From the NCBI RefSeq assembly GCF_003334315.1, contig NZ_QOWR01000016.1: DNA of 64,000 nucleotides; one strand, written 5' to 3'. Position 1 is the first letter of the stretch. Each line of letters begins with the position of its first letter. Under the pieces are notes generated by a model that saw nothing but the letters and a program-made list of their open reading frames with translations, searched no databases and was not told the origin of the DNA. Positions 17,609 through 36,836 of this stretch are shown here, in pieces. Source of the DNA: Escherichia coli (GTDB lineage: Bacteria > Pseudomonadota > Gammaproteobacteria > Enterobacterales > Enterobacteriaceae). A program made the position numbers and the translations under genes.

Positions 17609-19042
17609 CTAATTGTTCTGATAAATATCTTTATACAAACGGCTTTCAAAACGCACTAACGGAATACGGCGATTACGCTGATCCGCAGGTTCTACTGCAT
17701 AGCCAGAAAGATATTGCACAAACGCCATTCGTTGCCCGCTCGCTGTGGTAATGAATCCCGCCAGGTTATATACCCCCTGCAACGAACCGGTTTTCGCTGA
17801 GACTTTTCCATCCACGCCCGCCTGATGCAGACCTGCACGGTACTGCAAAGAGCCGTCATAGCCCGCCAGCGGCAGCATGGAGATAAAGTTAAGTTCATTG
17901 TCGTGTTGGGCAATGTATTGCAGCACCTGCATCATGGTGGCGGGGGCAATCAGGTTATGCCGCGAAAGCCCTGAACCATCGGCAATAATGGTGTTTCCAA
18001 TATCGACACCGGCTTGCTGGCGCAGGATCTGACGCACGGCGTCCGACCCGGCCCGCCATGTTCCAGGCACATTGAAGCGCGCATGGCCTATCATGCGGAA
18101 AACCGTATCGGCGATCATGTTGTCCGACTTTTTCAGCATAATCTTAAGCAGATCGTGCAGCGGGGCCGACTGTTTACTGGCAACTACCGTTCCAGGTTCG
18201 TTAACCTGAGTCTGGCGCAGCAGTGTTCCGCTCCAGGTGATACCCGCCTGTTTTAACTCATCTTTCAGAATTGCACCGGCATAGCTGGCTCCATCCTGCA
18301 CGGCAAAAGCCAACGGGAGCGGCTCAGAACGTTGTGGCAGGCATCCCGTCAGCGTAAAGCGGTTCAGGTCGCCTGGCACCACATCCAGTTCGCAGTATTG
18401 CGCTTCGGCAGAACCACGGGGGAGGGTGCGTACCTGGCTGAACATCGTAACGGGGTAATAAGATGCCACGCGTATAAAAGCCATATCACCAGGCTTTGGG
18501 GCACTGTAGAGCGAGACGGAGAAACAGTTGCGGTCAACTATGGCGGCGGCAGGCGGAGCGCTAAAGCATTGTGTCATGTCATTCCATGGCCAGCCGGGGG
18601 CTTTATCGTGGCTGGCGAAAATGGAGGTATCTATCAACACATTGCCATCGATTTGGTTGACGCCAGATTTTTTCAAAGTCGCGACCATATTGCGAATTTC
18701 CTGACGTTTTAACGTCGGATCGGCACCAAATCGCGCCACTAAGTCACCCTTAAGTACGCCGTTTTCCACATTGCCTTTGGTTTCAAGCGTCGTGGTAAAA
18801 CGAAAATCGGGGCCGAGTTGAATCAACGCCGCCAGCGCAGTAATCACTTTCTGGGTACTGGCAGGCAGCGCCATCTGCTGACTGTGGTAATCAATAGCGG
18901 GGGCCGACGCGCCGACTTTTTGCACCATCAGGGCAAGGTTGGCACCAGCGGGGAGTTGAGTAATGTACTCATCAACATTTGCGGCCTGAACACTGAACGC
19001 TATACAGCTGGTCAATCCGATGATAAATCTGGAAAATCGCAT
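17609..19042 (-). CDS. dacB: D-alanyl-D-alanine carboxypeptidase/endopeptidase PBP4
   Basis: 477-aa ORF with signal peptide and STQK active-site motif (PASTQKVITALAAL); matches DacB. Confidence 0.96.
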   Translation of the reverse strand: MRFSRFIIGLTSCIAFSVQAANVDEYITQLPAGANLALMVQKVGASAPAIDYHSQQMALPASTQKVITALAALIQLGPDFRFTTTLETKGNVENGVLKGDLVARFGADPTLKRQEIRNMVATLKKSGVNQIDGNVLIDTSIFASHDKAPGWPWNDMTQCFSAPPAAAIVDRNCFSVSLYSAPKPGDMAFIRVASYYPVTMFSQVRTLPRGSAEAQYCELDVVPGDLNRFTLTGCLPQRSEPLPLAFAVQDGASYAGAILKDELKQAGITWSGTLLRQTQVNEPGTVVASKQSAPLHDLLKIMLKKSDNMIADTVFRMIGHARFNVPGTWRAGSDAVRQILRQQAGVDIGNTIIADGSGLSRHNLIAPATMMQVLQYIAQHDNELNFISMLPLAGYDGSLQYRAGLHQAGVDGKVSAKTGSLQGVYNLAGFITTASGQRMAFVQYLSGYAVEPADQRNRRIPLVRFESRLYKDIYQNN

Positions 19043-19118
19043 AATCTCGCGCTAACAACCTGGAATCGAGCCGTCATACTACGGCGCAACGCCCTATAAA
19101 GTAAACGATGACCCTTCG

Positions 19119-19146
19119 GGAACTTCAGGGTAAAATGACTATCAAA
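19119..19146 (+). promoter_or_regulatory. Candidate sigma-E (sigma-24) promoter upstream of greA
   Basis: GGAACTT -16 nt- TCAAA matches the sigma-E -35/-10 consensus; greA is a reported sigma-E regulon member. Confidence 0.6.
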
Positions 19147-19161
19147 ATGTGAATTGTAGCT

Positions 19162-19197
19162 GACCTGGGACTTGTACCCGGGTCGGTATTTTTTTGC
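19162..19197 (+). terminator. graL: Intrinsic terminator/attenuator in greA leader (end of GraL leader RNA)
   Basis: GC-rich hairpin GACCTGGGACTTGTACCCGGGTC followed by a run of 8 T, about 100 nt upstream of the greA start. Confidence 0.6.
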
Positions 19198-19289
19198 TTC
19201 TGGTCCCGGTGAGGAGTTATGCCGGGCAGGCCGAACAGCCGGGGTGGGTGAAGACTTGCCCCATCAGGAATATTCAAGAGGTATAACAA

Positions 19290-19766
<477 letters not shown>

Positions 19767-19810
19767 GAATTACCCAATACTCAAGATGTTGATGTATTGT
19801 AAAGAAAGGA

Positions 19811-19836
19811 AAAAGGCCGCTATGCGGCCTTTTATC
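19811..19836. terminator. Hairpin terminator between convergent greA and yhbY
   Basis: AAAAAGGCCGCTATGCGGCCTTTTAT. Confidence 0.7.
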
Positions 19837-19921
19837 AACGAACAGAGCGTGGCATTTTGCTCTCCTGCCTGCGGAAAACCCCTCGTTTTACACAGCAAAT
19901 GTGTGTAACTTTAGGATAATC

Positions 19922-20215
19922 TTAGCGTGGCAGCGAGATTTTACGTTCTTTAGTTGGGCGATAAAGCACCAGCGTTTTACCGATGACCTGTACATTACAG
20001 GCGCCGGTTTCGCGCACGATAGCTTCCACGATCAAGGTTTTAGTTTCGCGATCTTCGGTGGCGATTTTCACCTTGATGAGTTCATGGTGCTCTAACGCTT
20101 GTTCAATCTCGGCCAGCACCCCTTCGGTCAAACCATTACTGCCAAGCAGAACAACTGGCTTGAGCGGATGTGCCAGACCTTTCAGGTGCTGTTTTTGTTT
20201 AGTACTCAGATTCAT
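19922..20215 (-). CDS. yhbY: CRS1/YhbY-family RNA-binding protein
   Basis: 97-aa ORF MNLSTKQKQHLKGLAHPLKPVVLLG; matches YhbY. Confidence 0.93.
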   Translation of the reverse strand: MNLSTKQKQHLKGLAHPLKPVVLLGSNGLTEGVLAEIEQALEHHELIKVKIATEDRETKTLIVEAIVRETGACNVQVIGKTLVLYRPTKERKISLPR

Positions 20216-20239
20216 CGTATTTTTTGCTTACGTTGGGAT

Positions 20240-20280
20240 TGAAAACGGGTCATTCTACCGCCATCTCCCATATATCACCA
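20240..20280 (+). promoter_or_regulatory. Possible sigma-32 heat-shock promoter of rlmE-ftsH operon
   Basis: ATTGAAA ... CCGCCATCT resembles CTTGAAA-N13-15-CCCCATNT; rlmE-ftsH are known heat-shock genes; match is imperfect. Confidence 0.35.
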
Positions 20281-20340
20281 AATAGGCGCGTAAAAATTTA
20301 CGCAATTGGTTACGATGAGTTATCCCCATGGGAAAGTTAA

Positions 20341-20970
20341 ATGACAGGTAAGAAGCGTTCTGCCAGCTCCAGCCGCTGGCTTCAGGAACACTTTAGCGAT
20401 AAATATGTTCAACAGGCACAGAAAAAGGGGTTACGTTCCCGTGCCTGGTTTAAACTTGATGAAATACAGCAAAGTGACAAACTCTTTAAACCGGGAATGA
20501 CGGTTGTCGACCTTGGTGCTGCTCCGGGTGGTTGGTCACAATATGTGGTCACCCAAATTGGCGGCAAAGGCCGCATCATCGCTTGCGATCTTTTACCTAT
20601 GGATCCTATCGTTGGTGTGGACTTTCTTCAGGGCGATTTTCGTGATGAACTGGTGATGAAAGCACTGCTGGAGCGCGTTGGCGACAGCAAAGTCCAGGTT
20701 GTCATGTCCGATATGGCACCAAACATGAGCGGAACACCGGCGGTGGATATCCCCCGTGCCATGTATCTGGTGGAACTGGCGCTAGAAATGTGTCGTGATG
20801 TATTAGCGCCAGGTGGCAGTTTTGTAGTGAAGGTGTTCCAGGGCGAAGGTTTCGATGAGTATCTAAGGGAAATTCGCTCCCTGTTTACGAAGGTTAAAGT
20901 TCGTAAGCCGGACTCTTCTCGTGCACGTTCGCGGGAAGTGTATATTGTAGCGACCGGGCGTAAACCCTAA
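20341..20970 (+). CDS. rlmE: 23S rRNA U2552 2'-O-methyltransferase (FtsJ/RrmJ)
   Basis: 209-aa ORF with SAM-binding motif [12 protein letters not shown]; matches RlmE. Confidence 0.96.
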
Positions 20971-25846: not shown

Positions 25847-25933
25847 GCCGAGGTGGTGGAATTGGTAGACACGCTACCTTGAGGTGGTAGTGCCCAATAG
25901 GGCTTACGGGTTCAAGTCCCGTCCTCGGTACCA
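25847..25933 (+). tRNA. leuU: tRNA-Leu
   Basis: GCCGAGGTGGTGGAATTGGTAGACACGCTACCTTGAGGTGGTAGTGCCCAATAGGGCTTACGGGTTCAAGTCCCGTCCTCGGTACCA: long-variable-arm class II tRNA with CCA end, immediately 3' of secG as for E. coli leuU. Confidence 0.9.
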
Positions 25934-29715: not shown

Positions 29716-29792
<77 letters not shown>

Positions 29793-29913
29793 CTTTCCCT
29801 TAGAGTCCTTTTTCAAATATACTGTGAAGACTTCGGCCTTCGTAGTGGGATTTGAAAAAATCCTTCTGGAAAGTGCTCCAGACCGCAGTTGCGGTTATAG
29901 GGTTCAGTTATAT

Positions 29914-29940
29914 AAAGCCCCGATTTATCGGGGTTTTTTG
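29914..29940 (+). terminator. Intrinsic terminator/attenuator between metY and rimP
   Basis: AAAGCCCCGATTTATCGGGGTTTTTTG hairpin plus T-tract. Confidence 0.7.
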
Positions 29941-29998
29941 TTATCTGACTACAGAATAACTGGGCTTTAGGCCCTTTTTTTATGTCTTGGGGGTGGGC

Positions 29999-34663: not shown

Positions 34664-34681
34664 GGTTTTTAGGGTTCCATG

Positions 34682-34757
34682 CGGGATAAGGCGTTTACGC
34701 TGCATCCGGCATGGATTGCCTGATGTGACGCTGGCGCGTCTTATCAGGTCAACGTGA
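34682..34757. repeat. REP element between infB and rbfA
   Basis: CGGGATAAGGCGTTTACGCTGCATCCGGCA ... GCCTGATGTGACGCTGGCGCGTCTTATCAGGTC. Confidence 0.75.
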
Positions 34758-36224: not shown

Positions 36225-36590
<366 letters not shown>

Positions 36591-36606: not shown

Positions 36607-36635
36607 AAAAGGGGGCCTGAGTGGCCCCTTTTTTC
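36607..36635 (+). terminator. Intrinsic terminator after rpsO
   Basis: AAAAGGGGGCCTGAGTGGCCCCTTTTTTC. Confidence 0.8.
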
Positions 36636-36836
36636 AAGCTGACGGCAGCAATTCACTGGAAACTAATGTATTGTTGCTATGAATGATCTTCCGTTGCAGA
36701 GGTTCGCGCGGCTAATGAGAGGCTTTACCCACATAGAGCTGGGTTAGGGTTGTCATTAGTCGCGAGGATGCGCAGAAGATCGGGTATTAACACCAGTGCC
36801 GTAAGGTACTGTCTAAGAAAGAGAAAGGATATTACA
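36636..36836 (+). promoter_or_regulatory. pnp 5' leader (autoregulatory region with RNase III-processed stem-loop; sRNA SraG reported in this intergenic region)
   Basis: About 200-nt untranslated region between rpsO terminator and the UUG start of pnp; regulatory role is from published E. coli work, not seen directly. Confidence 0.5.

Follow-up and report, generated by a model that had tools for sequence, protein, structure and literature searches.

The stretch of DNA analysed here, referred to throughout as the window, is a 64-kilobase (kb) piece of the Escherichia coli chromosome, and our subject within it is the leader of greA, the gene encoding the transcript-cleavage factor GreA. All positions are given in window numbering. 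The genes around the leader lie in the order obgE (+), dacB (17609-19042, -), greA (19290-19766, +), yhbY (-), rlmE (+) and ftsH (+). The greA coding sequence specifies 158 amino acids and starts with the ATG at 19290, both in the list of open reading frames and in the RefSeq annotation of the matching sequence, which is where a previous reading of this DNA from its letters alone (the sequence-only reading) had placed it. The leader itself is the dacB-greA intergenic region, directly upstream of greA and on the same strand, and the RefSeq annotation of matching genomes agrees with this arrangement. A 501-nucleotide (nt) query around the leader matched every one of the 5426 complete E. coli genomes, in many cases at 100% identity, and the matched sequence is annotated there as dacB and greA. 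When 18505-20505 was compared with the K-12 strain MG1655, 10 single-base differences were seen, none of them within 19069-19204; two lie at 19211 and 19262, in the part of the leader that is transcribed only on read-through. As 19069-19204 is identical to MG1655, experiments performed in K-12 apply directly to the sequence described here.

The region corresponds to the published greA promoter and leader of E. coli, in which two overlapping promoters lead into a leaky terminator that releases the short RNA GraL and allows read-through into greA; we assign this reading a probability of roughly 0.95. The published coordinates map exactly onto the window, with +1 at 19141, +19 to +48 at 19159-19188, +59 at 19199 and the AUG at +150 at 19290 (Potrykus 2010, PMC2836576; Dylewski 2019, PMC6829880). 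Furthermore, positions 19073-19194 (+) give a full-length match (model positions 1-124 of 124) to the Rfam family RF01769, 'Enterobacteria greA leader', with a score of 127.5 bits, the gathering threshold being 60, and an E value of 2e-24. The Rfam score, the identity with K-12 and the agreement of coordinates together bear out the name GraL, which the sequence-only reading had already proposed. On this identical sequence the literature provides experimental evidence for the promoters, the transcription starts, the factor-independent release of the RNA, the 3' end in vivo, the autorepression by GreA and its requirements in cis. The greA leader is thus a known element, described since 2010, curated in Rfam and confirmed by genome-wide mapping of 3' ends. 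Despite the publications and the Rfam family, GraL is unannotated in the RefSeq record of MG1655 (NC_000913.3), where greA occupies 3328239-3328715 (-) and the greA-dacB gap at 3328716-3328962 (locus L121) carries neither a GraL nor a greA leader feature. There is also a small discrepancy in the published numbering: the dacB AUG has been quoted at -98 (Dylewski 2019), and the sequence gives -99 if there is no position zero.

At the centre of the leader, a hairpin followed by a U tract constitutes an intrinsic (Rho-independent) terminator on the plus strand. Its 5' arm lies at 19159-19169 (GCUGACCUGGG), its loop at 19170-19176 (ACUUGUA) and its 3' arm at 19177-19187 (CCCGGGUCGGU), giving a stem of 11 pairs, 7 of which are G-C. 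The hairpin has a folding free energy of -19.6 kcal/mol (z score -3.67; 1 of 200 shuffled sequences was as stable), and the 54-nt mapped transcript at 19141-19194, which folds solely as an unpaired tail plus the terminator, scores -3.97, with none of 200 shuffles as stable. The single-stranded tail at the 5' end of GraL (19141-19158, +) comprises +1 to +18 of the transcript from the upstream promoter, and is unpaired in both the minimum free energy and the centroid fold. Past the stem lies the termination zone A-U7-GCUU at 19188-19199 (+), made up of A19188, T19189-T19195, G19196, C19197, T19198 and T19199; the U tract therefore begins 2 nt past the stem and runs for 7 consecutive U. The sequence-only reading had described a strong hairpin with an 8-T tract, about 20 nt downstream of a sigma-E motif and about 100 nt upstream of greA. 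The hairpin and its distance from greA stand, since the T run stops 95 nt short of the ATG; the tract is in fact T-A-T7, with seven T in a row, and 12 nt lie between the -10 element TCAAA of the motif and the stem. That the hairpin arose by chance is excluded by the shuffle statistics together with the covariation described below. We also considered whether it serves the opposite strand and rejected this, as the terminator scan reported nothing on the minus strand at this site and transcription of dacB leads away from the hairpin. A longer-range structure in the leader was likewise rejected: the fold of 19141-19310 has a z score of -1.25, like that of shuffled sequences, and the pairing it suggests, in which the foot of the terminator would contact the beginning of the greA coding sequence, is unsupported.

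The conservation of the leader was followed with a DNA-pattern scan of species-representative genomes, anchored on the N-terminal coding sequence of greA. This yielded 120 loci, mostly from Enterobacterales with a few from Pasteurellaceae and others, of which 118 were usable, and the equivalent of 19069-19204 was aligned from 94 distinct Enterobacterales sequences, to which all counts of substitutions and covariation in this region refer. A sigma-E-like motif with 16-nt spacing is present at 98 of the 118 loci when up to two mismatches are allowed (84 with up to one), and 85 of the 98 motif-bearing loci show, beginning 39-46 nt past the motif, an ungapped hairpin with a T-rich tail, so that the short 5' tail is conserved in length. 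In the terminator stem 96.5% of the cells in the alignment are paired, 7 of the 11 pairs have changed on both sides and 48 cells carry double changes. None of 500 shuffles reaches any of these measures, and when the partner is slid by one column only 57-59% of cells pair. A smaller comparison had already found that 17 of 18 stem mutations in four species keep the pairing (Potrykus 2010). Moreover, conservation of the eight lower stem pairs extends to their sequence, beyond what pairing accounts for: at each of six pairs 85-91 of the 94 sequences show no change, 87 retain the U19166-G19180 wobble and 69 the basal G19159-U19187 pair. At the apical pair covariation occurs freely. The sequence conservation of the lower stem fits the published finding that swapping the arms of the hairpin preserves termination in vitro and abolishes autoregulation by GreA (Dylewski 2019), and that of the basal pair fits the reported influence of a basal G-U pair on the precision of termination (Potrykus 2010). 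Matches to RF01769 above threshold were obtained in Salmonella, Klebsiella, Erwinia, Pantoea, Hafnia, Edwardsiella, Serratia, Sodalis, Cedecea and others; Haemophilus, Chelonobacter, a Plesiomonas metagenome-assembled genome, Hamiltonella, Gullanella and Magnetococcales remained below it.

The behaviour of this terminator has been documented in detail. The 11-base-pair (bp) stem followed by AU7GCU2 terminates some two thirds of transcripts, while about a third read through, and the release is independent of other factors, as shown on immobilised templates with pure RNA polymerase (Potrykus 2010). The 3' ends are unusually imprecise and spread over about 10 nt. GraL comprises two sets of short chains, 40-50 and 50-60 nt in length, which are also seen in vivo (Potrykus 2010); the chain lengths were later given as 49-59 and 37-47 nt (Dylewski 2019). 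In genome-wide Term-seq data a strong 3' end, present in at least two growth conditions, maps to MG1655 position 3328811 (-), which corresponds to window position 19194, the sixth U of the tract and -96 from the greA start codon, with the sequence context AAAATGTGAATTGTAGCTGACCTGGGACTTGTACCCGGGTCGGTATTTTTTTGCTTCTGGT (Adams 2021, PMC7815308, supplementary files 1 and 3). This end is supported by 65,239 reads in LB at an optical density of 0.4 and by 61,204 in a second condition; it has a Rho score of 0.67 ('No') and an intrinsic-terminator score of 5.2, and lies outside any Rho termination region (Adams 2021). From the letters alone a 3' end near 19197 had been predicted, and the published end falls close to it. 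Disruption or deletion of the hairpin has been published to raise greA expression. Conway 2014 cites the GraL paper and says nothing more on GraL. Among the aligned loci, the sequence equivalent to window 19187-19199 falls into two classes, U-A-U7-GCUU in Escherichia, Salmonella, Citrobacter and Hafnia, and U4-C-U4(-5)-GCUU in most other Enterobacteriaceae; the imprecise termination has been studied on the first of these only.

Upstream of the terminator lie two interleaved promoters on the plus strand. P1, a sigma-70 promoter absent from the sequence-only reading, was recognised in a consensus scan as ATGACC-N17-TAAAAT, with its -35 element at 19108-19113 and its -10 element at 19131-19136, and had been assigned in the literature from TTGACA N17 TATAAT (Potrykus 2010). 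Its +1 is at 19141, because the greA AUG is at +150 from it (Dylewski 2019, Fig. 1 legend) and the ATG is at 19290; an ApU primer was used for P1 (Potrykus 2010), and 19141-19142 reads AT. In the -35 region ATGA is invariant and CCC nearly so, and in the -10 element T, A, A and T never vary, the remaining two positions being at least 90% conserved. P2, the sigma-E promoter, has the exact consensus -35 element GGAACTT at 19119-19125 and, after a 16-nt spacer, TCAAA at 19142-19146, an exact match to the -10 consensus TCNAA; the sigma-E match GGAACTT-N16-TCAAA is thus exactly where the sequence-only reading had reported it. No second exact match exists on either strand of the 64 kb, dinucleotide-preserving shuffling gave none in 100 shuffles, and 0.32 matches are to be expected once a single mismatch is tolerated. 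AACT of its -35 and TCA of its -10 are invariant, and the final AA is at least 90% conserved; across species the -35 variants are TGAACTT (50), GGAACTC (23) and GGAACTT (14). The start of P2 is at 19152, within 1 nt, 11 bp downstream of that of P1; P2 transcripts are initiated with ApA, and 19152-19153 reads AA. P1 and P2 (GGAACTT N16 TCNAA) were published as two strong overlapping promoters 11 bp apart, and the sigma-E holoenzyme produces P2 transcripts in vitro that are 11 nt shorter than those from P1, a shorter GraL set being visible on northern blots as well (Potrykus 2010). The published starts at 19141 and about 19152 thus settle the 5' ends for which the sequence-only reading had proposed mapping. 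Furthermore, greA belongs to the core sigma-E regulon (Rhodius et al. 2006), induction of sigma-E in vivo is answered by the native fusion and not by lacUV5 replacements (Dylewski 2019), and the greA promoter region serves in the literature as a standard template for both sigma-70 and sigma-24.

The leader is also the site through which GreA represses its own gene. Deletion of greA derepresses about threefold and overproduction of GreA represses (Potrykus 2010; Dylewski 2019), so that the autoregulation mentioned in the sequence-only reading is published and acts through this very terminator. Autorepression requires catalytically active GreA and operates via GraL in cis; it is independent of the promoter, as shown by replacement with lacUV5, and of sequence past +59, as shown by the NDS fusion, and it is weakened when the +1 to +18 tail is scrambled (Dylewski 2019). 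Hfq, the Nus factors and sigma-E have been excluded as the missing partner (Potrykus 2010; Dylewski 2019). Two further 5' ends downstream, P3 and P4, are virtually inactive as promoters (17 and 6 Miller units; Potrykus 2010), and greA therefore depends on read-through from P1 and P2, as had been expected from the short leader RNA predicted by the sequence-only reading.

Taken together, these observations give the following course of events. The interleaved promoters P1 (sigma-70, start at 19141) and P2 (sigma-E, start at about 19152) fire 11 nt apart, with P2 providing an input from envelope stress. After 18 nt of RNA from P1, or 7 nt from P2, the transcript forms the 11-bp hairpin, followed by A-U7-GCUU, and about two thirds of the polymerases are released at 19189-19199, mainly at 19194, giving GraL of 37-59 nt. 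The remaining third continues over 95 nt of leader into greA, whose expression is set by this read-through. More catalytically active GreA leads in vivo to more GraL and less read-through, in a manner that needs both the 5' tail and the hairpin arms. For the step in between, our best guess is that cleavage-competent GreA, together with a partner, alters polymerases within the first 60 nt in such a way that more of them terminate at the sequence-specific hairpin. Finally, the released GraL has also been reported to act in trans, with nudE as the likely target.

No argument against the identity of the element was found, but several published observations weigh against parts of this account. The effect of GreA is absent in purified transcription (Potrykus 2010; Dylewski 2019), and since autorepression has not been reproduced with purified components the feedback step may be indirect. 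The distance between the starts was given as 11 bp (Potrykus 2010), whereas the chain lengths of 49-59 and 37-47 nt imply 12 nt (Dylewski 2019), for which reason the start of P2 is uncertain by 1 nt. A direct trans target of GraL was called 'elusive' and was unconfirmed in 2010 (Potrykus 2010), and in 2019 nudE was named as the 'most likely' one (Dylewski 2019). In addition, fusions carrying P1 alone and P1 with P2 differ little in activity (Potrykus 2010), which indicates that P2 contributes little unless there is envelope stress. This last result could be taken to mean that the sigma-E motif is fortuitous or vestigial, that all relevant transcription starts from P1 and that greA is not truly under envelope-stress control; most Enterobacteriaceae, moreover, have TGAACTT or GGAACTC in place of the full -35 consensus, and because TCAAA overlaps the P1 start site part of its conservation could stem from P1. 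We consider this very unlikely, given that the exact motif is unique in the window and absent from the shuffles, that AACT and TCA never vary in the alignment, that the sigma-E holoenzyme transcribes P2 in vitro with a matching shorter GraL on northern blots, and that greA is both a member of the core regulon and inducible in vivo in its native fusion. A less remote alternative is that GraL is a stand-alone small RNA (sRNA) gene, in which the trans-acting RNA is what matters and greA is expressed incidentally, because the sRNA terminator leaks. Overexpression of GraL changes more than 100 genes and affects fitness (Potrykus 2010), a later screen yielded about 40 synthetic-lethal genes and proposed nudE as target (Dylewski 2019), and a hairpin with a U tail is the usual 3' end of an sRNA. 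Nevertheless, we find it unlikely as a replacement for the cis-acting role: P3 and P4 are nearly inactive and leave greA reliant on read-through from P1 and P2, the requirements of GreA autoregulation in cis have been demonstrated, GraL from a single copy is barely detectable on northern blots (Potrykus 2010), and the status of its trans targets is as given above. A function in trans adds to the role in cis and does not exclude it, and the evidence for it is the weaker of the two.

The Rfam model raises a further possibility, that of a classical attenuator or riboswitch-like leader transcribed from near 19073, in which the Rfam helices and an antiterminator compete with the terminator, as Naville and Gautheret (2010) suggested for the leaders of greA. 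The Rfam consensus draws five helices within 19073-19143, about 90% of whose cells can pair, and an antiterminator was reported to be detectable in each class of greA and rnk leaders (Naville and Gautheret 2010). However, that study, which is the source of RF01769, defined its candidates as the sequence from the boundary of the upstream gene to the terminator and ignored the transcription start. About 68 nt of the RF01769 match (19073-19140) lie upstream of the mapped P1 start, and with starts at 19141 and about 19152, downstream of or inside the helices, the RNA cannot contain them. Nor is there covariation in the upstream helices among the 94 sequences: a single cell shows a double change, pairing is equally good in 280 of 500 shuffles, and pairs are disrupted by substitutions in 17, 55, 24 and 20 sequences. 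The mapped 54-nt transcript folds as tail and terminator only; the 18 nt (P1) or 7 nt (P2) before the stem leave no room for a leader peptide, and no open reading frame starts there. Furthermore, GreA raises termination instead of relieving it (Dylewski 2019), and the Rfam scan of the region returned no match to a riboswitch family. An attenuator of this kind is therefore extremely improbable. Since the upstream helices lie upstream of or across the mapped starts and lack covariation, the 5' two thirds of the Rfam model are promoter DNA without structural support, which is a weakness of the 5' boundary of the model and casts no doubt on membership of the family.

Comparison with related systems places this element more clearly. 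With GraL as described previously (Potrykus 2010; Dylewski 2019; RF01769) it shares the locus, the sequence, the promoters, the 11-bp stem and AU7GCU2, and differs in nothing. The leader of rnk and other members of the greA/rnk family resemble that of greA in having a premature intrinsic terminator 5' of a Gre-family gene and in a short form that has been suggested to act in trans, but the rnk and greA leaders are unrelated in sequence and have no common motif (Naville and Gautheret 2010). The SreA riboswitch of Listeria monocytogenes, a comparison made by the authors of GraL themselves (Dylewski 2019), is likewise a terminated fragment of a 5' leader that works in cis on the gene it precedes and in trans on a different mRNA; SreA, however, is a ligand-binding riboswitch with alternative structures, whereas GraL has neither aptamer nor antiterminator and its effector, GreA with a further factor, raises termination and does not switch it. 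Other Term-seq ends in 5' untranslated regions of E. coli are similar in lying about 100 nt before a start codon and in being intrinsic, although most entries of that catalogue are uncharacterised (Adams 2021), while GraL has detailed biochemistry and ends spread unusually widely, over about 10 nt. In Pasteurellaceae, greA has a different, 13-bp hairpin with a T tract at -73 to -44 from the ATG. In Chelonobacter oris and Pasteurella testudinis (loci L072 and L110) this hairpin, GACUACAGCAUAA / UUAUGUUGUAGUU, shows compensatory differences between the species, and L072, the one of the two that was scanned, has no match to RF01769. The Pasteurellaceae hairpin agrees with the notion that greA retains a terminator in its leader even as the sequence of that terminator is replaced.

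Beyond the known element, two neighbouring features attracted our attention. The read-through leader of the greA mRNA (19200-19289, +), with the Shine-Dalgarno sequence GAGG at 19278-19281, contains at 19241-19262 (+) a hairpin, GGGGUGGGU-GAAG-ACUUGCCCC, which occupies the interval 28-49 nt ahead of the ATG. The four pairs at its base covary from genus to genus (GGGG/CCCC, GGAG/CUCC, GGAA/UUCC), with 40 double-change cells against 10.9 +/- 2.7 in shuffles, none of 500 of which reaches 40, and the hairpin is followed by the highly conserved ACAGGAAUGUU-yAAGAGGUAUAACAAAUG. This hairpin lies outside RF01769 and is dispensable for GreA autoregulation (Dylewski 2019). The 5' ends P3 and P4 have been taken as processing sites (Potrykus 2010), and the hairpin may relate to them. 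On the dacB side, a 14-bp block, AAAGTAAACGATGA (19098-19111), is invariant in the alignment and CATACTACGG (19075-19084) nearly so, the 13 nt between them varying without insertions or deletions. Read on the minus strand, the two blocks include TTTACT (19105-19100) and, after 18 nt, TAGTAT (19081-19076), which agree with consensus at 8 of 12 positions, the reason that the promoter scan did not report them. This arrangement fits a putative divergent dacB promoter, back to back with the -35 element of greA P1. Primer extension revealed no dacB transcripts (Potrykus 2010). The invariance of 19098-19111 seems to exceed what two hexamers would need. The CpxR and sigma-28 consensus sequences were compared with the block by eye, and neither fitted. 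From the conservation pattern, these features could be two candidate control elements in addition to GraL: the invariant block an operator for a regulator shared by dacB and greA, and the 19241-19262 hairpin a determinant of the stability or translation of greA mRNA that might explain P3 and P4. We offer this proposal tentatively and think it more doubtful than probable by a wide measure.

Downstream of greA, AAAAGGCCGC-UAU-GCGGCCUUUU at 19811-19833, where greA and yhbY converge, has the appearance of a terminator acting in both directions. Term-seq places a minus-strand 3' end, that of the yhbY terminator, at window position 19808 and, in the sense of greA, strong 3' ends at 19937 and 20013, which lie within yhbY and antisense to it (Adams 2021); part of greA transcription thus seems to pass the hairpin and overlap yhbY. 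Elsewhere in the window, the RNA elements above Rfam gathering thresholds are two tRNAs, a rimP leader, naRNA4, the S15 (rpsO) leader and SraG (minus strand), with the intervals 25847-25930, 29716-29789, 29881-29981, 34680-34750, 36263-36377 and 36607-36778; none of them is unexpected in this stretch of the E. coli chromosome.

In summary, the greA leader of this window is the established one, and what this analysis adds are modest points: the 5' part of the Rfam model is unsupported as structure, the lower stem of the terminator is conserved in sequence, and the read-through leader contains a further covarying hairpin. If the invariant block were indeed an operator, a shared regulator would link cell-wall remodelling (dacB) to transcription proofreading (greA). 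The published work leads to the question of how GreA, with a presumed partner, raises termination at a sequence-specific hairpin in vivo though not in vitro. GreA is the principal factor by which E. coli RNA polymerase cleaves and proofreads its transcripts, so that its level must be kept within tight limits, and the leader described here is the means by which the cell achieves this.

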